Shown: positions 6,411-17,874 of the stretch, one piece after another | How positions within the stretch are numbered: the first letter of the stretch is position 1 | How the letters are laid out: each line of letters opens with the position of its first letter | DNA from: a virus | Virus record (IMG/VR): IMGVR_UViG_3300025785_001261 | Span: 1-64,000 of that record | DNA: 64,000 nucleotides | Reading direction: 5' to 3' (one strand) | The notes under the pieces: model-generated | Told to the model about the DNA's origin: nothing | Seen by the model: the letters and a program-made list of their open reading frames with translations, nothing else | The model's database searches: none | Position numbers and translations under genes: made by a program

Positions 6411-6762
6411 GCTGACCGAGACCCTGGTGGCACAGCTGGACCCTGCCCTGGGCATCACAGTTGATACAGCATATACCACCTGGTGGCACAACATCAGAGC
6501 CGGTGGTGGTATGCGACTTACCGGCGCAGGTGCTAAGGTATTCCTTGAGTATTTAAAATTGGAACACTACACATTTACCGTAGATCCCTTGGCCGTGACT
6601 TCAAGATTGATCATTGACATGGACCGTAGATTGCAACAGCCTTACTATATCCGAATGGTAAAACACTATCCAAGAGAAGTTGTATTTTTTGGCTCCAAAG
6701 AAGCCATGATGGCCAATCTGTATGGTGATCTGAAGAAATTTATTGACAATTATGGTTCATGA
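6394..6762 (+). CDS. hypothetical phage protein
   Basis: 122 aa, WWHNIRAGGGMRLT motif. Confidence 0.7.
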   Translation: MRNKRELTETLVAQLDPALGITVDTAYTTWWHNIRAGGGMRLTGAGAKVFLEYLKLEHYTFTVDPLAVTSRLIIDMDRRLQQPYYIRMVKHYPREVVFFGSKEAMMANLYGDLKKFIDNYGS

Positions 6763-6771
6763 TGCTATAAT
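6743..6771 (+). promoter_or_regulatory. consensus sigma70 promoter for the tRNA/tmRNA locus
   Basis: TTGACA-17 nt-TATAAT with TG extension, 7 nt before the tRNA 5' end. Confidence 0.9.
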
Positions 6772-6778
6772 AGCTTAT

Positions 6779-6855
6779 GGGCCTATAGCTCAGTTGGTTA
6801 GAGCAGAGGACTCATAATCCTTTGGTCCCTGGTTCGAGTCCAGGTGGGCCCACCA
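6779..6855 (+). tRNA. tRNA-Ile2 (CAT, lysidine type); Met not excluded
   Basis: Cloverleaf GGGCCTA/TGGGCCC, anticodon loop CTCATAA, GGTTCGAGTCC T-arm, encoded CCA; resembles bacterial ileX. Confidence 0.9.
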
Positions 6856-6856
6856 A

Positions 6857-6864
6857 TATAAATA
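6857..6864 (+). promoter_or_regulatory. T4-like late promoter box upstream of the tmRNA
   Basis: Exact TATAAATA. Confidence 0.6.
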
Positions 6865-6868
6865 GATT

Positions 6869-7170
6869 TGATTGTTGTAATTCCTTCGTAGTGAAGGCAC
6901 TGTGGACCCGGGTTCGATCCCCGGCATCTCCACCATAAGGGTATAGTATGTTTGAAACATGGCACTGGCAGTACGTATGGGGCATAGCCTGCACTGTAAA
7001 CTATATCTTTATGATGGGGATGACATGGCTTCGACATGGTGAGATAGCGAAAGAGGCAACAGGACAGAGCAGTCCCAAAAACTAAAAAACGTAAACGCAA
7101 ACGACGAACAGTTCGCATTGGCAGCCTAGGCTGTCTAGGGTAGGAAATACCTCGTAACAGAAACAACCAA
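6869..7170 (+). ncRNA. ssrA: circularly permuted (two-piece) tmRNA
   Basis: The acceptor 3' half (GGACCCGGGTTCGATCCCCGGCATCTCCACCA, ending 6935) precedes the 5' half (GGGGATGAC..GGCTTCGAC, from 7016). G3.U70 Ala identity pair. Tag ORF 7097-7129 = ANDEQFALAA*. Confidence 0.93.
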
Positions 7171-7171
7171 G

Positions 7172-7190
7172 AAAGGGCTTCGGCCCTTTT
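7172..7190 (+). terminator. intrinsic terminator after the tmRNA
   Basis: AAAGGGC-TTCG-GCCCTTTT. Confidence 0.85.
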
Positions 7191-7211
7191 CTTACAAATA
7201 AGTACAGTTCT

Positions 7212-8672
7212 ATGTGCGGTATACTTCTAGTTCGCAGTCGCGATAAAATTCCTTTACAAAAGCACTTTGATGCTTTGAAACAGATCCAAAGTCGCGGACC
7301 CGATTTCATGCGCTATCGACATGAGAACGGTATCTTTATTGGACACACGGTCCTACATATAACCGGCGATCGAGAATACTACGACAATAGCCATAGAAAC
7401 TTCCTGGCCTACAACGGTGAAATCTACAACTACAGAGATCTAGGTGCCTACCGTACCGACACCGAATTCGTACATGAATGTGTGGAGAACGATCTAGGAC
7501 GTCTTACGGCCGGGTGGGGTCCTTGGGCCTGGGCCTGGACTGACAGTGAAACTGTGCTGTATGCGTCAGATCCACAGGGCGAACGTGCTCTCTATCAGTA
7601 CCAGGACGATTCAATTTTGATAGTGTGTTCAGAAGTGGCGCCTATCCTAAGTTATATTGACGGGATAAAACAAGCACAATCTTATGAGACCCGCAACTGG
7701 ACCATGCTGGACACCACACCTTGGCAGGGCATTGTCAAGTGCGTGCCGGGCATGCTGTACCGTGATGGACACCCATCGGGCATCATTGACAGCATATGGT
7801 CATGGGTAAAAGAACCGCAACATGTGACCGAAGATGAGGCCTACGAAGATTTTAGTTCGATATGGCGCGATGTCATGCGGCAAATGACTCCAGCCTGTCC
7901 TGCGGGCTTGACCTATTCGGGTGGTCTAGACAGCTCCATAATCCTAAGCCACTTGCCAGGAGCATATCTATACACCACCAACATGCAGGGCAAAGATCCT
8001 ATAGCAGAACGTGTGGAAGGTTTTCTTAACGCCGGAGAACAACGACGCTTGGCACGCTTTGATGTAAACGAACAGGATTTTGCTCAGGCCTTTGGTGCCT
8101 GCCAGACTCGCATACGCATGCCCATACAGAGTCCCAGTTTTGTGGGGCAGTGGCTCATAGCAGCCTTGTGTGGACAACGGGTGCTGTTCACAGGCATTGG
8201 TGCTGACGAGCTGTTTGGGGGTTACCCTGTGTACGATCGCATGGACTTTGTCAGTTCAGAATCAGCTAGCCCTTATAGTCTAGGCACTCCACTATGGCGC
8301 CAATGTCTGGATACCTGTTCAGGCGATGCAGAAGCTGCCACATTGTTGGCTGACTACTGGCATCAGATAGTGGGTTGTGATGCCAGAGGAGTCGACATGA
8401 TCTGTGGTTCACACGGCATAGAAGCCAGAAGTCCATTCTTGGCTACACCTGTCATTAGATTCGCATTGAATCTGCCCATGTACTTACGACGCGGTAAACC
8501 CTTGATCCGACGGATGTTTCTTGAACGCTGGAATGAGTCACAGATACATGCCAAAAAAGGCTTCACCGGACACTGTAATGATGCACTGCCTTGGATGGGC
8601 ATTGAGATCGTGCCCACCGGAGATAGACAGTCAGACTGGCGACAAATTATACAAACCTGCTTTTATTCGTAA
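7212..8672 (+). CDS. asparagine synthetase (glutamine-hydrolysing)-like amidotransferase
   Basis: MCGI Ntn cysteine, RGPD, YNGEIYNY, SGGLDSS PP-loop, TGIGADELFGGY, EARSPFL. Confidence 0.9.
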   Translation: MCGILLVRSRDKIPLQKHFDALKQIQSRGPDFMRYRHENGIFIGHTVLHITGDREYYDNSHRNFLAYNGEIYNYRDLGAYRTDTEFVHECVENDLGRLTAGWGPWAWAWTDSETVLYASDPQGERALYQYQDDSILIVCSEVAPILSYIDGIKQAQSYETRNWTMLDTTPWQGIVKCVPGMLYRDGHPSGIIDSIWSWVKEPQHVTEDEAYEDFSSIWRDVMRQMTPACPAGLTYSGGLDSSIILSHLPGAYLYTTNMQGKDPIAERVEGFLNAGEQRRLARFDVNEQDFAQAFGACQTRIRMPIQSPSFVGQWLIAALCGQRVLFTGIGADELFGGYPVYDRMDFVSSESASPYSLGTPLWRQCLDTCSGDAEAATLLADYWHQIVGCDARGVDMICGSHGIEARSPFLATPVIRFALNLPMYLRRGKPLIRRMFLERWNESQIHAKKGFTGHCNDALPWMGIEIVPTGDRQSDWRQIIQTCFYS

Positions 8673-9377: not shown

Positions 9378-10340
9378 ATGACTACCCCCAAAGTAAAAAC
9401 GCACACCGACGGCATCTGGATTTCTGAAGCACGCGAAAAAGCCATGCTGGCTACATTGCACAGTTCAGCACAAGGTTTTAGGCCGGTCAAGCAGACACAG
9501 GAAAATTTTGGTTATGCAACTGTGTATGAACACCTGGGTCGACGCCTGCACTATCGATTGGTCGACAGTGTATTTCTACCCAATCCCGACGCTTGGTATG
9601 ATTCCACTGCGGTCATTGTTACCGATAATCATGTCATGAAACCTGTGGCCGGACGTATCATTTCTACTCTTCCAGAGTTCTGGAGCATCTGGCGTTTTGA
9701 ACCCAGCTATGTAGATCGTAGACCTGTCAAAAGATTCAACTGTTTTATGAACCGTCCACGTGGTGATCGCAACATGGTCTATTATGAATTGATACGTAGG
9801 AATCTATTAGATTCGGGGTTCGTCAGCTACAACTGTACCGCGGCCGAACTAGATCAGGAATACACGGCTGCGGATCTATCACGCTACAGTGCAGAGCATG
9901 CGGTTGCACAGGTACCTTACAACACGGTAGAAGCACATGGCACGCTAGAACAGTGCATCATTGATTCAAGTGTGAGCCTGGTGTTGGAAACCTATACCGC
10001 CGACGATCACATTGTGTTGAGTGAAAAAATCTTTAGAGTGATGCAATTACCACGCCCATGGTTGGTATATACCAGTCCTGGTGCTGTGTCTTTGTTGCGT
10101 GGTTATGGATTTGATGTGCTGGACGAGTATGTGGACACTGCCTATGATGATATACAGATGCACAGCCAACGATTAACGGCTGTGTTGGATCAACTGCAAC
10201 AGATCAATACTGCCTGGACCGGCGCAGATTTTGCACGTTTTGATCAGGCTGCGCAACACAACAGAAATCTACTGAACACCTGGGCCGATGCTTGGCCTCA
10301 GCGTTTAGAAAATATCGTACAAGAATTAAAAAATATATGA
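9378..10340 (+). CDS. GT10-like ('TEK' family) putative glycosyltransferase, paralogue 1
   Basis: SLVLET...LSEKIFR...PW...GFDVLD..VD.AYD. Confidence 0.55.
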   Translation: MTTPKVKTHTDGIWISEAREKAMLATLHSSAQGFRPVKQTQENFGYATVYEHLGRRLHYRLVDSVFLPNPDAWYDSTAVIVTDNHVMKPVAGRIISTLPEFWSIWRFEPSYVDRRPVKRFNCFMNRPRGDRNMVYYELIRRNLLDSGFVSYNCTAAELDQEYTAADLSRYSAEHAVAQVPYNTVEAHGTLEQCIIDSSVSLVLETYTADDHIVLSEKIFRVMQLPRPWLVYTSPGAVSLLRGYGFDVLDEYVDTAYDDIQMHSQRLTAVLDQLQQINTAWTGADFARFDQAAQHNRNLLNTWADAWPQRLENIVQELKNI

Positions 10341-11326
10341 TCCGGTTTGTAGGCTCAGAATTCTTACAGCAACCCCGTGATGTCACTGGGCCCGAGCTGA
10401 TCATGATCGAAGATCATCACTACAATGAAGAGCTTGGTTGTTATCCGATACAACAACTGTTGGATGACAGTCCATATCAGCACACTGTGGTGTTTGATCA
10501 TGTGTTGCGACACGAAGGTCCCTTGTCCAGATATGACTTGATTTTCGTACCGGCTTTCTTGGCCAGGACCTGTAGAGATTTCGTACAACAGAATATCGTC
10601 CCTGATTGGGGGCAACGGCCTTACACTTTCAATTTTATGATCAACAAGCCTAGACTACATAGAGAATTTCTACTGGTATTGATTGATCATTTTAAATTAA
10701 CCAATTATACACATACCTTGTGCTGGAAGAAAGCCTGGATCAATCCTGACCTTGTTGATGCACGCTATCGGCCGCTGGTACGTCAGCCGGTCAGTATCGA
10801 ACCAAGACAATTCCTACTGGGGCAAGAAAATCTCCTGGATCGCGGTCTACAATATCGACAGGTACGCAATAGCCAAAACTATCAGAGTTTTCTGCAACAC
10901 GAACTATTTGAAAATTCCTGCGTCAGTATCATAACCGAACCGGCCTTTTATGAACAGGAAACCATCATTACCGAAAAGACCATCATGGCCTTATGGGGTG
11001 GTACTATTCCCATCTGGATGGGTGGCTGGCGCATAGCCGACTATCTCGGAGATCTAGGATTTGATACCTTTGATGATGTGGTAGATCATTCCTATCAAGC
11101 TCTGGCAGATCCATGGGACCGTGCTTACTACGCCATCGAACGCAATCTGGCCCTGTTACAGGATCATGCCAGTCTGGAACGATTCTGCAGCCAGAATCGC
11201 GAACGTTTTGAACACAATTTGGATCTGGTCAAATCCAATATATTCCAACGACAGTGTACTGAGATGATGGCACAGCGATCGGAACTGTCAGGATTGTTTA
11301 CAGATTTGTCAGGCCCTGCATGCTAA
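10337..11326 (+). CDS. GT10-like putative glycosyltransferase, paralogue 2
   Basis: SIITEP...ITEKTIMALWGGTIPIW.GG...GFDTFDDVVDHSY; start reassigned to MIRFVG. Confidence 0.6.
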   Translation: MIRFVGSEFLQQPRDVTGPELIMIEDHHYNEELGCYPIQQLLDDSPYQHTVVFDHVLRHEGPLSRYDLIFVPAFLARTCRDFVQQNIVPDWGQRPYTFNFMINKPRLHREFLLVLIDHFKLTNYTHTLCWKKAWINPDLVDARYRPLVRQPVSIEPRQFLLGQENLLDRGLQYRQVRNSQNYQSFLQHELFENSCVSIITEPAFYEQETIITEKTIMALWGGTIPIWMGGWRIADYLGDLGFDTFDDVVDHSYQALADPWDRAYYAIERNLALLQDHASLERFCSQNRERFEHNLDLVKSNIFQRQCTEMMAQRSELSGLFTDLSGPAC

Positions 11327-12420
11327 GGATCTTTGGACCCACTTATCGCTACGCAGGCGAACGTCTTACTCAGGCCGAAACCATCTTCATAGAGGATCAT
11401 CACTATGATGAACAGGCCCGTGGTTATCCAGTACAACAACTGCTGTACAACAGCACGTGTGATCCACATGCACATCTAGTGGTCATAAGCGGCCTGGCTC
11501 ATGACGATGTTCTAGCAGAATATCCGCATGTGTGCCTGCCCTGGTATGCTGCCAATCAAGTGGATCAGTTTGAACAGGAACATATACAGCCTGACTGGAC
11601 CCACAAGACTGCCACATTTAACTTTATGATCAACAAGCCCAGACTGCACAGGAAATTTCTCCTACAGTTGATCGACCATTTTGCGCTGACCGATTACACA
11701 CACAGTCTGCCTTGGCAACGCACTCAAATAGTCACAGAGGATCTGCTGGGTCTGACACAGAATGCTTTGTATCGACATATCATACAGAAACATGGGCAGG
11801 TACCTTGTACCACCACTGACTATAGATTTGGTCCCGAACAGATGATGGATCAAGGAATCCGCAATGGCGCATTCCGCAACAGCCAGACCTACAATGGACT
11901 TTTGCGTGCTCGTGTGTTTGAACCTGCCTGTATCAGCCTCATAACCGATGTGATGTTTTTTGAACGCGAAACAAGAATCTCAGAAAAGACCATCATGGCC
12001 ATATACGGTGGTACTGTTCCTATCTGGGTAGGCGGGTGGCGCATTGCGTCGGGCATGCGAAACTTGGGATTTGATACCTTTGATGACATAGTGGATCATT
12101 CATACGAAGATTTACCCGATCCCTTGGATCGTTGTTATCATGCGGTCAAATTAAACCTGCATCTACTTCAGGAGCCCGATTGGATACGCAACTTCCTGGA
12201 AAAAAATCACGCTAGATTACAACACAATCTGGATCTGTGCCGCGCCAATGTTTTCCGTACACGTTGCCTACAACAGATACAAGAGTTTGATCCCAAGACC
12301 CAACAGGACCTACTAGGTATCCTAGACCGTACTGCTAAATTTTCTTCTACCCTGGGTGATGTCACGGCTCGTTTGAGTCCTGCTCAAATATCTAATTCCA
12401 AACCGGTTGACAAGTCATAA
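11320..12420 (+). CDS. GT10-like putative glycosyltransferase, paralogue 3
   Basis: Close paralogue of the preceding gene (IEDHHY, FNFMINKPRLHR, SEKTIMA, GFDTFDDIVDHSY). Confidence 0.6.
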   Translation: MLRIFGPTYRYAGERLTQAETIFIEDHHYDEQARGYPVQQLLYNSTCDPHAHLVVISGLAHDDVLAEYPHVCLPWYAANQVDQFEQEHIQPDWTHKTATFNFMINKPRLHRKFLLQLIDHFALTDYTHSLPWQRTQIVTEDLLGLTQNALYRHIIQKHGQVPCTTTDYRFGPEQMMDQGIRNGAFRNSQTYNGLLRARVFEPACISLITDVMFFERETRISEKTIMAIYGGTVPIWVGGWRIASGMRNLGFDTFDDIVDHSYEDLPDPLDRCYHAVKLNLHLLQEPDWIRNFLEKNHARLQHNLDLCRANVFRTRCLQQIQEFDPKTQQDLLGILDRTAKFSSTLGDVTARLSPAQISNSKPVDKS

Positions 12421-12435
12421 ATATCTGTGTATAAT
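12407..12435 (+). promoter_or_regulatory. consensus sigma70 promoter driving the leader peptide
   Basis: TTGACA-17 nt-TATAAT. Confidence 0.9.
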
Positions 12436-12442
12436 ACTTACT

Positions 12443-12541
12443 ATGAAGAACACAACTTTACACAGCTCCTTGTTAAAAGACCAAATGATTGGACTGTCCA
12501 ATCTATGGGTGCTGGAGTGTGGCCGAAAGGGTTCTGAATAA
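12443..12541 (+). CDS. putative 32-aa leader (attenuator) peptide, leaderless
   Basis: ATG 7 nt after the -10; MKNTTLHSSLLKDQMIGLSNLWVLECGRKGSE*; the stop codon lies in the 5' arm of an antiterminator. Confidence 0.65.
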   Translation: MKNTTLHSSLLKDQMIGLSNLWVLECGRKGSE

Positions 12542-12597
12542 GCTGAGAATTAACTGGATTATTCAAGAGCCCTGGAATTCAAACTCCGGGGTTTTTT
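12529..12597 (+). promoter_or_regulatory. transcription attenuator: mutually exclusive antiterminator and intrinsic terminator
   Basis: GGGTTCTGAATAA (12529-41) pairs with TTATTCAAGAGCCC (12559-72), which overlaps the 5' arm of terminator CCCTGGA..TCCGGGG-TTTTTT (12570-97). Confidence 0.7.
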
Positions 12598-12611
12598 ATT
12601 GAGGAAAAGAA

Positions 12612-12857
12612 ATGACAGTTTTTACAACCACCTCTGTGGCACAAGATCGATATGCCACTTGCCAACAGTGTGAGCACTGGATCAATGCCACCCGGATGTG
12701 CGGACAGTGTGGATGTTTTATGCCGTTCAAGGTGCGTTTTTACAATGCCAATTGTCCGGTTGGTCGTTGGAGTCAGGAACGCGGATCTCGATCTGCTGTA
12801 GAGCCCGACTTGTCGACCTTTGCAGTATCAGGAGAAAATAATGAAACCAACAACTAA
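12612..12857 (+). CDS. small Cys-rich metal-binding protein (DUF6171-like)
   Basis: RY..CxxC...CxxCGCFM..K....CP.GRW; GAGG RBS. Confidence 0.7.
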   Translation: MTVFTTTSVAQDRYATCQQCEHWINATRMCGQCGCFMPFKVRFYNANCPVGRWSQERGSRSAVEPDLSTFAVSGENNETNN

Positions 12858-13011
12858 CAGAAAAGAAACAAAATTTGTACTAGCACCCGAAGAGCGGGCG
12901 GCCTTGATTGAAGCCAAGTATGCACGAGCACAGGCACAGGTCGAAGCCATGATAGCACAGGTCGAAGCAGTACGCAACTTGAAAACTGTGTATCATCAAA
13001 TTGAAGATTAA
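12841..13011 (+). CDS. small hypothetical coiled-coil protein
   Basis: AGGAG RBS before ATG 12841. Confidence 0.6.
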   Translation: MKPTTNRKETKFVLAPEERAALIEAKYARAQAQVEAMIAQVEAVRNLKTVYHQIED

Positions 13012-13023
13012 AAGGAGGCGATT

Positions 13024-13608
13024 ATGCCAGCAGTATTTTTAACCAGTGACACGCACTTTGGTCATGCGGGTGTATGTCGCTTCACACGAGCAGATGGTGT
13101 TACCAAGTTAAGGCCCTGGACTGATCCAGAAGAAATGGACGAAGCCATGGTCCGGGCCTGGAATGAACGTGTGCGACCCAACGACAAGGTATATCACCTG
13201 GGTGATGTTGTGATCAACCGTCGGGCCTTGAAAACCATGTCCAGATTAAATGGCGACAAGGTCTTGATTCGTGGTAACCATGACATCTTTCCAGACGCAG
13301 AATATCGCGAGTATTTTAGAGAACTGCGTGCCTACCATGTGATGAATGGCATGATCCTAAGTCACATACCTATCCACAGCGAAAGCCTGGGTAGATTTGG
13401 TGTCAACATACACGGGCATACCCACGCCAATCGTGTAATGCGACCGTTGGCCACAAGCGGACGGTCTGATGTTGTTGATGTCAGATACCACTGTGTCTGC
13501 GTTGAGCAGACCGATTTTGCTCCAATCCTGTTTGAGGATGTTGTTAAACGGATTGAAGCAGAAGGTGGTGTGATTGGTTTTAGGAACGGCAACGGTCCTT
13601 CAATGTAA
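13024..13608 (+). CDS. calcineurin-like metallophosphoesterase
   Basis: SDTHFGH, HLGD, RGNHD, SH.P, HGHTH motifs; AGGAGG RBS. Confidence 0.92.
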   Translation: MPAVFLTSDTHFGHAGVCRFTRADGVTKLRPWTDPEEMDEAMVRAWNERVRPNDKVYHLGDVVINRRALKTMSRLNGDKVLIRGNHDIFPDAEYREYFRELRAYHVMNGMILSHIPIHSESLGRFGVNIHGHTHANRVMRPLATSGRSDVVDVRYHCVCVEQTDFAPILFEDVVKRIEAEGGVIGFRNGNGPSM

Positions 13609-13612
13609 TAAA

Positions 13613-13686
13613 GCGGGATTAGTTTAGGGGCAAAACTAGAGATTTCCAATCTTTCGTCATCGGTTCGATTCCGATATCCCGCTCCA
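13613..13686 (+). tRNA. tRNA-Gly (TCC)
   Basis: GCGGGAT/ATCCCGC acceptor stem, loop TTTCCAA, TCCA end. Confidence 0.92.
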
Positions 13687-13691
13687 AGTAT

Positions 13692-13765
13692 TCCGGGCAA
13701 GTGTTACGGTAGCACAGCAGACTCCAAACCTGCTGGACGGGGTTCGATTCCCTGGCTCGGAGCCA
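13692..13765 (+). tRNA. tRNA-Trp (CCA)
   Basis: TCCGGGC/GCTCGGA acceptor stem, loop CTCCAAA, GCCA end. Confidence 0.9.
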
Positions 13766-13768
13766 TGT

Positions 13769-13797
13769 TTGACAAGCAGTAGAAACAAGTGTATAAT
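13769..13797 (+). promoter_or_regulatory. consensus sigma70 promoter
   Basis: TTGACA-17 nt-TATAAT. Confidence 0.88.
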
Positions 13798-13799
13798 AG

Positions 13800-14000
13800 T
13801 ATTACTCATTGTGAAGATTGTGTGCGAAAGATTAAGCAATCCTAACTGTTGAGGAAGATAACCACCCTGTGCGAGTTACTCCACGAGAGAACGCCGTATG
13901 CTGAGACGGCTTAACGACCACAGGGGAACGGCTGACGCATGGTAACCAATCCATCCATAAGTTCTTAAACATGTGACAGTGGTCTTCACAATGAGTAATA
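13800..14000 (+). ncRNA. ~200-nt structured ncRNA, rod-like (6S-like candidate)
   Basis: Perfect 18-bp terminal inverted repeat (TATTACTCATTGTGAAGA / TCTTCACAATGAGTAATA), inner helices CCCTGTG/CACAGGG and GCCGT/ACGGC; own promoter; abuts tRNA-Cys. Confidence 0.7.
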
Positions 14001-14001
14001 T

Positions 14002-14079
14002 GCAACGGTGGCAGAGTGGCCCAATGCGCAGGACTGCAAATCCTGAAAGCCGCTGGTTCAAATCCAGCCCGTTGCTCCA
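14002..14079 (+). tRNA. tRNA-Cys (GCA)
   Basis: GCAACGG/CCGTTGC acceptor, CAGGA-CTGCAAA-TCCTG, TCCA end. Confidence 0.92.
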
Positions 14080-14082
14080 GAT

Positions 14083-14157
14083 GCTCCGTTCGTCTATCGG
14101 TTAGGACACCCGCCTTTCACGCAGGTAAGAGCAGTTCGATTCTGCTACGGAGCGCCA
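14083..14157 (+). tRNA. tRNA-Glu (TTC)
   Basis: GCTCCGT/ACGGAGC acceptor, loop CTTTCAC, GCCA end. Confidence 0.92.
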
Positions 14158-14181
14158 GATATATACAATAAAGGAACCGGT

Positions 14182-14325
14182 ATGCCAGTAAAAGAAACCA
14201 TTAATCGAGCCTACGGCAATACTCCACGAGACCTGCCGGATCCATTCAGCTGGACCGACGATTTCCTGCCCAGAACGTTCAAGTATTTTTGGTTGCGCTG
14301 GATCGTTCGGCGATATTTCCGATAA
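14182..14325 (+). CDS. small hypothetical protein (47 aa)
   Basis: AAGGA RBS; MPVKETINRAYGNTPRDLPDPFSWTDDFLPRTFKYFWLRWIVRRYFR*; below the ORF-track cutoff. Confidence 0.55.
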   Translation: MPVKETINRAYGNTPRDLPDPFSWTDDFLPRTFKYFWLRWIVRRYFR

Positions 14326-16958: not shown

Positions 16959-16987
16959 TTGACAAGTCAGCGCAAATCATGTATAAT
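16959..16987 (+). promoter_or_regulatory. consensus sigma70 promoter
   Basis: TTGACA-17 nt-TATAAT. Confidence 0.88.
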
Positions 16988-17007
16988 AGCTTTTTACAGG
17001 AGAAATC

Positions 17008-17235
17008 ATGAAATCAAGAATTGACAGTCGCGGTCCCAAAATTGACATGGAACAGTGTGTGAGACAGGCCGGAGGCGGGCGCTACGACATGGTCTTGATT
17101 GGTGCGCAACGATTGCGTGAACTCAAACGAGTACACAGGGAAGATGCCACTCGTTATGTCACCTGCGTGGATGCCCTGACTGACATCCAAAACGGCATCG
17201 TGGATCTCGAAGATTATCTAGCCAAAGTACAATAA
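17008..17235 (+). CDS. rpoZ: RNA polymerase omega subunit-like protein
   Basis: GGRYDMVLIGAQRLREL...VDALTDIQNG matches the omega motifs NRFDLVLVAARRARQ / ALREIAEG. Confidence 0.75.
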   Translation: MKSRIDSRGPKIDMEQCVRQAGGGRYDMVLIGAQRLRELKRVHREDATRYVTCVDALTDIQNGIVDLEDYLAKVQ

Positions 17236-17244
17236 GGAGACATC

Positions 17245-17406
17245 ATGGCACGACCACAACAAACAGCAAGTGAACTGAGTCGCACACTAGCAGGACAATG
17301 GAGCAAAAGCGAAAAACGAGCCAAAATGAGTCGCAGTATCATGGAAGCCAATCAACGCACCAAGGCCATCAACAAGGCCATCAAGCAACAGCAGTTCATG
17401 AAGTAA
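17245..17406 (+). CDS. small basic hypothetical protein (53 aa)
   Basis: AAGGAG RBS; MARPQQTASELSRTLAGQWSKSEKRAKMSRS...FMK*. Confidence 0.65.
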   Translation: MARPQQTASELSRTLAGQWSKSEKRAKMSRSIMEANQRTKAINKAIKQQQFMK

Positions 17407-17413
17407 CAGCCAC

Positions 17414-17501
17414 GGAGGGTTGGCCGAGCGGTTAAGGCAACAGTTTGCTAAACTGTCACTCAGTAATGGGTGGATAGGTTCGATTCCTATACCCTCCGCC
17501 A
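17414..17501 (+). tRNA. tRNA-Ser (GCT)
   Basis: GGAGGGT/ACCCTCC acceptor, loop TTGCTAA, long variable arm, GCCA end. Confidence 0.93.
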
Positions 17502-17557
17502 AGATTTTTATCACAGATTTGGCTACAAATAAGTAAAGCACAACATAAGGAAACAAC

Positions 17558-17794
17558 ATGGCAGCCAAAGGTGGAAATCAAAAAAGTCGTCGAGCAGATC
17601 CAATGCGTACCAAGAATGGTCGAGAGCGCCTGGGTCCTCTTAATGTAGCACAATTAGAAAAACTGCTGGCTAACGCTCGCAAAAAGAATCAGGCCAAAAT
17701 TGCCCGTAGGATCGCTGTGCTAAAGAGTCGTTCTGGTTACCGAGCTCCCTTGTTGGCAGTAGATGGCATCATGGCCGACACACCGGCCCAGTAA
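17558..17794 (+). CDS. small basic hypothetical protein
   Basis: AAGGA RBS; Lys/Arg-rich, 78 aa. Confidence 0.7.
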   Translation: MAAKGGNQKSRRADPMRTKNGRERLGPLNVAQLEKLLANARKKNQAKIARRIAVLKSRSGYRAPLLAVDGIMADTPAQ

Positions 17795-17799
17795 ACAAG

Positions 17800-17874
17800 G
17801 CCCCTGTAGCTCAGCGGCAGAGCAACTGCTTTGTAAGCAGAAGGTCCGCGGTTCAATCCCGTGCGGGGGCACCA
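17800..17874 (+). tRNA. tRNA-Thr (TGT)
   Basis: GCCCCTG/CGGGGGC acceptor, loop TTTGTAA, ACCA end. Confidence 0.92.

Follow-up and report, generated by a model that had tools for sequence, protein, structure and literature searches.

A candidate ribosome-mediated transcription attenuator in front of the tRNA arrays of uncultured phages

Introduction

Ribosome-mediated attenuators such as trp and his combine a short ORF with overlapping and mutually exclusive antiterminator and terminator folds. In the trpL, hisL, thr and ilvGMEDA/ilvBN leaders this ORF is translated and its stop codon sits where a ribosome that terminates there puts the antiterminator out of action. The enterobacterial thr and ilvGMEDA/ilvBN leaders are multivalent and respond to several amino acids together. 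The phage locus described here resembles these leaders in all of these respects as far as its sequence can tell. Unlike them, it is phage-encoded, would control tRNA genes rather than biosynthetic enzymes and has a putative leaderless start; instead of tandem runs, it carries single codons for up to ~10 tRNAs, which co-vary with the array.

Several leader peptides of Corynebacterium glutamicum sit on leaderless transcripts. The small leader peptides of trpE, leuA, ilvB and aroF in this species are thought to act by attenuation (PMC3890552). In contrast to the phage element, they belong to cellular amino-acid operons of another host lineage, contain runs of cognate codons and involve no tRNA genes.

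Three further systems are related in outcome or in parts. T-box riboswitches also let tRNA status set the choice between terminator and antiterminator in a leader, but the uncharged tRNA is bound directly by the specifier loop and the T-box sequence, without any ORF or ribosome. TnaC-type leader peptides are likewise short, contain a conserved Trp and control the transcription of what lies behind them; they depend on a fixed spacing from this Trp to a C-terminal Pro and on a block of Rho, whereas the phage leaders have a variable Trp-to-stop distance (11 to 33 codons), no conserved terminal Pro and an intrinsic terminator. In Anabaena sp. PCC 7120 the trn operon, a long array of supernumerary tRNAs, is kept low and induced upon translational stress (PMC8421152), which is the logic proposed here. 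Its control has been attributed to direct repeats over the -10 box and the transcription start site together with the repressor TrcR (PMC8421152, PMC10272220), and no leader peptide, attenuator or terminator is mentioned in either of these two papers. Our search of the literature found no published description of an element like the present one.

Results

The window, i.e. the whole stretch of 64,000 nucleotides that was analyzed (IMG/VR record IMGVR_UViG_3300025785_001261), contains a compact leader at the head of its tRNA region:

12407..12435, + strand: consensus sigma-70 promoter, within the 3'-terminal part of the 366-aa gene upstream
12443..12541, + strand: putatively leaderless leader ORF of 32 codons, stop TAA at 12539-12541
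12529..12541, + strand: antiterminator 5' arm, made of the last three to four sense codons and the stop codon
12559..12572, + strand: antiterminator 3' arm, sharing 12570-12572 with the terminator 5' arm (larger overlap in the extended stem)
12570..12597, + strand: intrinsic terminator with a 7-bp G+C-rich stem, an 8-nt loop and six T

The promoter (TTGACA at 12407-12412, 17-nt spacer, TATAAT at 12430-12435) matches the consensus at 12 of 12 positions, by direct reading as well as in a promoter scan, and is one of four such 12/12 promoters between 5 and 24 kb of the window. TTGAC and TA.AAT are invariant in the leader promoters of alignment A1. The ORF opens with an ATG at 12443, 7 nt from the -10 box. 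Since this ATG lies 6-10 nt past the -10 box here and in relatives, with no visible Shine-Dalgarno sequence in the leaders that were read, the mRNA is predicted to be leaderless, its start position being deduced from the promoter. Sixteen residue types and 27 distinct codons are used, Trp being codon 22 and Cys codon 26, and the ORF contains a strictly cognate codon for each of the six downstream tRNAs (GGA, TGG, TGT, GAA/GAG, AGC and ACA). An earlier, sequence-only reading of this DNA had claimed a perfect sigma70 promoter followed by an ATG, a 32-codon ORF with these residue and codon counts, and a codon for every one of the six tRNAs. The promoter and start codon were borne out, the counts were reproduced and strict cognates were found for all six tRNAs.

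The same reading had placed the end of the ORF and its stop codon in a 13-bp, one-bulge helix with 12559-72 that excludes a U-tailed terminator, and had suggested folding the leader with and without a constraint on 12520-12550. Folding confirmed the helix: 12529-12541 and 12559-12572 form 13 pairs, one of them G-U, and a single A is bulged. The terminator, which was absent from an automated terminator scan, was also recovered by folding (stem CCCTGGA/TCCGGGG, 12570-12591, with six T behind). When the U tract was left out, as in the elongation complex, the minimum free energy folds of 12443-12591 and 12520-12591 contained the antiterminator and not the terminator. With 12524-12553 masked, which mimics a ribosome that has reached the stop codon, the terminator folded and the antiterminator could not. 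Together with the shared nucleotides 12570-12572, these results uphold the mutual exclusion of the two structures. In the window both states are nearly isoenergetic. If the U tract is free to pair, equilibrium folding yields the terminator under every mask, and the switch must therefore operate kinetically. The RNA from promoter to terminator is structured (z = -3.2), and an Rfam scan of the whole window reported only tRNAs and tmRNA, the leader being covered by no family.

The following features lie downstream of the terminator:

12612..12857, + strand: first downstream gene, 81-aa Cys-rich protein (phrog_13558; DUF6171 below cut-off), ribosome-binding site 14 nt after the T tract
12841..13011, + strand: 56-aa helical protein, no family in Pfam
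13024..13608, + strand: calcineurin-like metallophosphoesterase, from family matches
13613..13765, + strand: tRNA-Gly(UCC) at 13613-13686 and tRNA-Trp(CCA) at 13692-13765
13769-13797, + strand: second consensus promoter, followed by a structured spacer of ~200 nt
within 13769..14157, + strand: tRNA-Cys(GCA) at 14002-14079 and tRNA-Glu(UUC) at 14083-14157
16959-16987, + strand: third consensus promoter, with small ORFs behind it
within 16959..17874, + strand: tRNA-Ser(GCU) at 17414-17501 and tRNA-Thr(UGU) at 17800-17874, codons of both being present in the leader

The stretch from the leader to tRNA-Gly and tRNA-Trp is promoter-free. The 81-aa Cys-rich gene is an insertion peculiar to the phage of the window; in most relatives the gene immediately 3' of the terminator is a homologue of the 56-aa protein. 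When relatives were compared, the next gene was found to begin 14-20 nt past the T tract without a promoter of its own, which implies that it is expressed only via read-through. In the window and in several relatives some tRNAs of the array are separated from the leader by consensus promoters, so the attenuator cannot be the sole control. The earlier caveat that the Cys/Glu and Ser/Thr tRNAs have their own promoters was correct, these being the second and third promoters listed above.

The sequence-only reading had also recommended a search of related phages for a promoter, a short ORF and overlapping hairpins at tRNA arrays. Among 80 loci retrieved through the phosphoesterase, 12 had a leader upstream of a tRNA array, and three subsequent pattern scans brought the set to 91 distinct homologous leaders, all from uncultured phages, which were divided into 15 peptide families by BLOSUM-score clustering. 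The leader heads a tRNA array in all 83 loci with sufficient downstream DNA. The ATG lies 6-10 nt past the -10 box in 88 of the 91 leaders, and L176, L209 and L211 have a Shine-Dalgarno-led start in place of the leaderless one. A pattern scan that did not specify an ATG yielded 26 new true members, every one with an ATG at this distance (26/26).

The leader ORF has 20-52 codons in 91/91 leaders. In the 44 leaders tested for coding, frame 0 is always open for 31-40 codons and the other frames are mostly shut at once, while a stop at codon 31-40 is seen in only 8% of dinucleotide shuffles. Indels in the ORF are in frame, and pN/pS ranges from 0.27 to 0.59 with an excess of third-position changes. 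The peptide is under moderate purifying selection, which counts as a reservation about the attenuator reading, since it might also point to a function of the peptide itself.

The spacing and pairing of the elements are similarly constrained. The distance from the stop codon to the T tract is 42-57 nt over the 91 leaders and 46-57 nt in the 44-leader subset. In folds ending before the terminator 3' arm, the terminator 5' arm pairs with the last codons and the stop codon in 42/44 leaders, against 14.5% with shuffled upstream sequence, and in every family its partner segment falls between -16 and +6 relative to the stop codon. The stop codon itself is 25-37 nt upstream of the terminator 5' arm in 44/44 leaders, a position from which a terminating ribosome should miss the terminator and cover the antiterminator arm. 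In the alignments 97% of the terminator cells are paired, with one compensatory pair (UA 17, CG 15, UG 12); the antiterminator is paired in 71.7% of cells versus ~50% in slid controls and shows both-side changes at 7 of 14 pairs. The peptides are unrecognizable between families, and the Cys residue roams from codon 4 to codon 27, yet architecture, stop position and competing helix have all persisted. The covariation test that had been proposed for this locus thus supports both helices. Judged from these sequence comparisons, the recurrence in 91 relatives of the ORF, its stop position, both helices and the link to a tRNA array is far beyond chance.

The codon content of the leaders was compared with the tRNAs behind them. 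Trp is present in 89/91 leaders. Two leader sequences (three loci) lack both Trp and Cys, and their arrays contain neither tRNA-Trp nor tRNA-Cys within 10 kb; a scan for further Trp-less short leaders returned three loci only. The amino acid of the first four non-Met tRNAs occurs in the leader in 278/278 cells (75-81% expected), and Tyr is found in the leader at 19/19 loci with a proximal tRNA-Tyr versus 12/27 without. Under strict wobble rules, 366 of 380 tRNAs have a cognate codon in the leader, against 246.6 expected. With one representative per family, 69 of the 72 nearest tRNAs have a cognate codon in their own leader, compared with 50.6 +/- 3.5 for random codons, 58.9 +/- 3.0 for leaders swapped between families and 48.5 +/- 3.5 for windows drawn at random from genes of the same locus. 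Because the families are homologous to one another, the counts are not fully independent. The match is stable for cut-offs of 3 to 10 tRNAs and fades at ranks 11-20. Sampling of the downstream tRNAs' codons by the leader, which the earlier reading had suggested from the window, therefore holds over 15 families and survives three controls. The cognate codons are not significantly concentrated where a stall would free the antiterminator (P = 0.11-0.43).

Tandem codon runs are absent from the leaders and Trp and Cys are mostly single. Such runs are what makes classical attenuators sensitive, and the presence of single sensor codons counts against the attenuator reading.

The same pattern was sought in 596 Gb of bacterial genomes and gave 68 matches, three of which pass the ORF criteria; two of these three are from the window's phage family. 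A scan for the terminator by itself found the same shape, including its loop, at the ends of ordinary structural genes of other phages, and the terminator motif alone is therefore not diagnostic for the element. Comparison of 11300-14200 with deposited phages by blastn gave matches confined to the tRNA genes, and a tblastn search for cultured relatives with the 56-aa downstream protein gave no match. Relatives of the phosphoesterase with 40-59% identity occur in phages of Caulobacter, Brevundimonas, Synechococcus and others, and in Brevundimonas phage Kabachok the gene does not adjoin tRNAs. No laboratory phage with the element was identified by these searches. The locus is present in 24 freshwater DNA runs; no RNA runs with it were listed.

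Discussion

The element is probably a ribosome-mediated transcription attenuator that heads the phage tRNA region and raises tRNA output upon slow decoding of cognate codons. The sequence-only reading had interpreted it as an attenuator, and every comparative prediction open to testing came out positive. In the proposed mechanism, the host sigma-70 RNA polymerase would start at or beside the A of the ATG and the transcript would be translated as a leaderless mRNA. If a ribosome completes the ORF with the polymerase still within ~50 nt, the antiterminator 5' arm would be held, the terminator would form and a leader RNA of ~155 nt would be released. If the ribosome is absent or has stalled earlier, the antiterminator would fold first and transcription would continue into the small proteins, the phosphoesterase and the tRNAs. 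As we see no clear 1:2 anti-antiterminator, an untranslated phage leader is predicted to read through and not to super-attenuate. Since the leader carries single codons of the nearest tRNAs, slow decoding at these codons should lead to more of the matching tRNAs, and the system should switch off once decoding recovers, in a supply-on-demand feedback loop. The phage thus probably makes more tRNA when ribosomes slow at matching codons. Host anticodon nucleases as the trigger are a matter of speculation.

We give somewhat better than even chances to the broader view that many phages carry a programmable "codon dipstick", i.e. a mostly leaderless test ORF whose codon content evolves with the tRNAs behind it and which tops up exactly those tRNAs by antitermination. 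If this is true, tRNA genes would for the first time be known to be under leader-peptide attenuation, and a tRNA would be tied directly to the decoding of its own codon in an autoregulatory loop. Why phages carry tRNAs and at which times they use them is debated: proposals are that these tRNAs compensate for codon usage, stand in for host tRNAs that have been degraded, or allow escape from anticodon nucleases. If a conserved sensor precedes the arrays, tRNA supply would prove to be something that the phage itself regulates, and the monitored codons would be named, which opens the question to a direct reporter experiment. Classical attenuation would also reach RNA genes, viruses and a multi-codon format. 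The ~190 nt of natural parts, predicted to couple transcription to the decoding of chosen codons, could possibly serve as in vivo sensors of tRNA availability.

The closest competitor is a general gauge of translation capacity, which would sense the availability of ribosomes or initiation factors, or a global slowing, with no sensing role for the codons. Such a gauge would react solely to the start of any ribosome on the leaderless AUG and its timely arrival at the stop codon. Its anatomy would be identical to that of a codon-sensing attenuator, the sensor codons are single-copy and without positional bias, and leaderless initiation itself depends on conditions. It leaves unexplained why leaders match their own arrays (69 versus 58.9 +/- 3.0 when swapped) and why Trp and Cys are lost exactly where tRNA-Trp and tRNA-Cys are missing, and we regard it as unlikely. 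An ordinary small-protein gene with a leaky terminator, in which the peptide is the product and the terminator fixes the ratio of peptide mRNA to downstream transcripts, would agree with a pN/pS below 1, with motifs conserved inside families and with terminators of the same shape closing structural genes elsewhere. Against it stand the peptides, which are unrecognizable between families and have a Cys that drifts along the ORF, while the overall anatomy persists. Neither the codon-tRNA match nor the conservation of a helix that ties up the terminator arm is accounted for, and we consider this explanation improbable.

The unit of ~155 nt could instead be a stable regulatory RNA, perhaps dual-function, with read-through being incidental. 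A small RNA derived from an attenuator has a precedent in rnTrpL of Sinorhizobium (PMC6614838), and the strong promoter, the structured RNA and the terminator would all suit such a role. The lack of an Rfam family match, the selection on the reading frame and the promoterless downstream gene make it very improbable as a replacement for attenuation, which a small RNA role would supplement. Least credible is an inverted logic, in which leader translation would be needed for read-through because a close ribosome blocks the terminator hairpin. Ribosome-dependent suppression of a terminator does exist in pyrBI; a pyrBI-like arrangement was rejected here from the position of the stop codon relative to the terminator arm in 44/44 leaders. 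A T-box riboswitch was rejected because the Rfam scan of the window gave no match to RF00230 (specifier loop, T-box sequence), and a TnaC-like arrest peptide because the distance from the first Trp to the stop ranges over 11-33 codons and the families end in different C-terminal residues.

Folding of the window also revealed a small hairpin within the leader ORF, directly before the Trp codon:

12487..12503, + strand: small hairpin

It is kept in the window's own family with a few compensatory changes and is not universal, its 3' arm being deleted in L013. This structure may be a pause hairpin.

Organization of the leader in the window

The virus record that contains the window is 86 kb long and uncultured, and freshwater contigs of 340-370 kb were found among the window's relatives. 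The leader anatomy described in the sequence-only reading, namely a promoter, a 32-codon ORF and two overlapping helices, was confirmed with the following features.

Features of the leader region
12407-12435: leader promoter (TTGACA, 17-nt spacer, TATAAT)
12443-12541: leader ORF, 32 codons, with its ATG (12443) 7 nt past the -10 box
12529-12541: antiterminator 5' arm, formed by the last codons and the stop; its partner is 12559-12572
12570-12597: terminator, whose 5' arm is overlapped by the antiterminator segment 12559-12572
12612-12857: Cys-rich ORF, 81 aa (phrog_13558; DUF6171 below its cut-off)

Within 20 kb there are four perfect promoters, the leader promoter included; of the remaining three, one precedes tRNA-Met and a permuted tmRNA and two precede further tRNA genes. 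A ribosome-binding site and an ATG, located 14 nt past the T tract, open three genes, which encode the 81-aa Cys-rich protein, a helical protein of 56 aa and a metallophosphoesterase; behind them come tRNA-Gly(UCC) and tRNA-Trp. In the promoter scan of the window, no noteworthy promoter-like site separated the terminator from these genes, which should therefore depend on read-through. The earlier caveat that the Cys/Glu and Ser/Thr tRNAs also have promoters of their own is justified; consensus promoters inside the array split many arrays, including that of the window. The 81-aa Cys-rich ORF between the terminator and the 56-aa gene was seen in this phage only; in most relatives a helical protein of 52-57 aa stands immediately behind the terminator.

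Relatives of the leader

Phosphoesterase-based retrieval gave 80 loci, of which 12 contained an nhmmer match to the leader. The viral collection was scanned with three patterns: promoter, ATG and terminator; promoter and terminator, the ATG not being required; and terminator alone. After these scans the set comprised 91 distinct leaders in 15 peptide families. The leader heads a tRNA array in 83/83 loci with enough downstream DNA. The first tRNA is tRNA-Trp in 21/62 loci, and tRNA-Trp is among the first five in 38/43.

The terminator-only scan also returned other viral contigs (L166, L170, L182 and similar loci) in which a CCCCGGA-ACTAAAAAC-TCCGGGG-type terminator, with the same stem and A-rich loop, closes a long structural-looking gene with tRNAs absent nearby. 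In this phage and host community, the terminator shape of the leader is a generic one.

Evidence for probable translation of the leader ORF

Frame 0 stays open over 31-40 codons in 44/44 leaders, the other frames being usually shut at once; of the dinucleotide shuffles, only 8% had a stop within this range. The leader ORF keeps its frame through indels of 6 and 9 nt. Inside close groups, third positions vary most and pN/pS lies at 0.27-0.59. Among 28 new sequences from the ATG-free scan, 26 have an ATG 6-10 nt past the -10 box from which an ORF of 32-40 codons starts; the remaining two appear to be chance matches. The same pattern, searched in 596 Gb of bacterial genomes as a negative control, gave 68 matches, only 3 of them with a qualifying ORF, and 2 of these 3 are this phage family in metagenomic bins. 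Two loci from MAGs labelled Haliscomenobacter sp. (L272) and Flavobacteriales (L290) are typical leader-family members, and represent either misbinned phage contigs or a hint of the host.

Three relatives start behind a Shine-Dalgarno sequence in a 5' UTR instead of leaderless; the conserved requirement seems to be translation, not leaderlessness. The 5' UTR of L209 and L211, which precede Ala-Trp-Gln arrays, is about 45 nt long, with AAGGAA as its Shine-Dalgarno sequence and a small hairpin.

Competing structures

The distance from stop codon to T tract is 46-57 nt in the first 44 leaders and 42-57 nt in all 91. When the RNA made before the terminator 3' arm was folded for 44 leaders, the terminator 5' arm paired with the segment from -16 to +6 relative to the stop in 42/44, compared with 14.5% when the upstream sequence was shuffled. 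Pairing of the terminator reached 97% on a fixed alignment, and one of its pairs occurs as UA (17), CG (15) and UG (12). The antiterminator is 71.7% paired versus 37-52% in slid registers, and changes on both sides were observed at 7/14 of its pairs; register shifts between families lower the antiterminator value. The short Trp-less leaders L260 and L261 show an equal arrangement built on different sequence.

In the window, the minimum-energy fold already holds the antiterminator before the terminator 3' arm exists. It also does so when the U tract is left out to mimic an elongation complex; explicit evaluation with the U tract excluded put the two states about 0.1 kcal/mol apart. Masking 12524-12553, as a ribosome at the stop would, abolished the antiterminator and left the terminator. 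With the U tract included, equilibrium folding gave the terminator under all masks, so any switch must be kinetic, a property that classical attenuators show.

Match between leader codons and tRNA arrays

Peptide sequences are unrecognisable between families; their composition tracks the array. Trp is present in 89/91 leaders and Cys in 67/70 (the first 70 collected). The leaders lacking both are two sequences of 20 and 22 codons (loci L260, L261 and L259), and tRNA-Trp and tRNA-Cys are absent from their arrays in 10 kb. The L260 peptide has 10/11 amino-acid types matched by a tRNA in its array, and 10/10 tRNA types of the L261 array are represented in its peptide. For non-Met tRNAs at ranks 1-4, the leader contained the amino acid in 278/278 cases over all loci versus 75-81% expected; this excess fades from rank 11 on. 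Tyr, Glu and Asp are always in the leader at loci with the matching tRNA among the first six, in contrast to those without: 19/19 versus 12/27 for Tyr, 18/18 versus 16/28 for Glu and 14/14 versus 19/32 for Asp.

Under strict wobble rules a cognate codon was found for 366/380 proximal tRNAs versus 246.6 expected from phage codon usage, and for Gly(UCC) in 26/27 versus 14. Counting a single representative of each family gave a match of 69/72. The result is robust at cut-offs of 3, 4, 6, 8 and 10 tRNAs; at ranks 11-20 the swapped control is no longer exceeded. P values are optimistic because families share ancestry, and the swapped-family control is the fairest test.

Controls for the codon match
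Random codons: mean 50.6 +/- 3.5 sd; highest 63 of 20,000
Swapped, leaders with other families' arrays: mean 58.9 +/- 3.0 sd; highest 68 of 7,284
Random same-length windows from the same locus's genes: mean 48.5 +/- 3.5 sd; highest 61 of 5,000

In the window, the proposal that the leader holds a codon for each of six downstream tRNAs proved correct (6/6 cognate). The putative sensor codons are single, not in runs. The first Trp codon always lies at least 11 codons before the stop, and cognate codons showed no significant enrichment at positions from which a stalled ribosome would leave the antiterminator intact. In L139, L133, L165, L172 and L219, Tyr (TAT or TAC) stands where close relatives carry Cys (TGT); these leaders are without any Cys, and tRNA-Cys is missing from their proximal tRNAs.

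Relation to known systems

The 91 leaders, with their kept ORF, stop position and competing helices, support the attenuator interpretation first proposed for the window. On this comparative evidence, the element is probably a translation-coupled attenuator sensing array-specific codons, and the predicted mechanism is of the classical leader-peptide class, within which the multivalent thr and ilv leaders come closest. In contrast to these, the window element is phage-borne and targets tRNA genes, and elements of its type use single codons for many tRNAs, co-varying with the array, start mostly leaderless and are predicted to read through when untranslated. Full-text literature searches turned up no account of tRNA genes controlled by a leader peptide. 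The nearest published logic is that of the tRNA array of Anabaena sp. PCC 7120, which is induced by translational stress (PMC8421152). Repeats in its promoter and the repressor TrcR control it, and a leader peptide or terminator is not mentioned (PMC8421152, PMC10272220).

Neighbouring features

Two tandem paralogous genes of 344 and 366 aa (10292-12420) have long conserved blocks in common and matched no Pfam family; the second terminates within the spacer of the leader promoter. In Brevundimonas phage Kabachok (L262, 8166-12546 of the locus), a few genes separate the metallophosphoesterase homologue from an RtcB RNA ligase. This proximity, together with the place of the window's enzyme in a tRNA operon, is a hint that the enzyme could act in tRNA end-healing or repair. 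The region of about 200 nt that separates tRNA-Cys from the second consensus promoter (13798-14001) contains no ORF and no Rfam match. Its ends form a perfect inverted repeat, about 16-18 nt long, that closes it, and it may serve as a structured spacer or give rise to a processed RNA. A 75-aa ORF (17008-17235) behind the third consensus promoter had no Pfam match at E <= 0.01. At 6743-7220, a perfect consensus promoter is followed by tRNA-Met and a circularly permuted tmRNA (Rfam beta_tmRNA, tmRNA_permuted) with the tag peptide ANDEQFALAA, which suggests that the host is a betaproteobacterium and that the phage invests in ribosome rescue.
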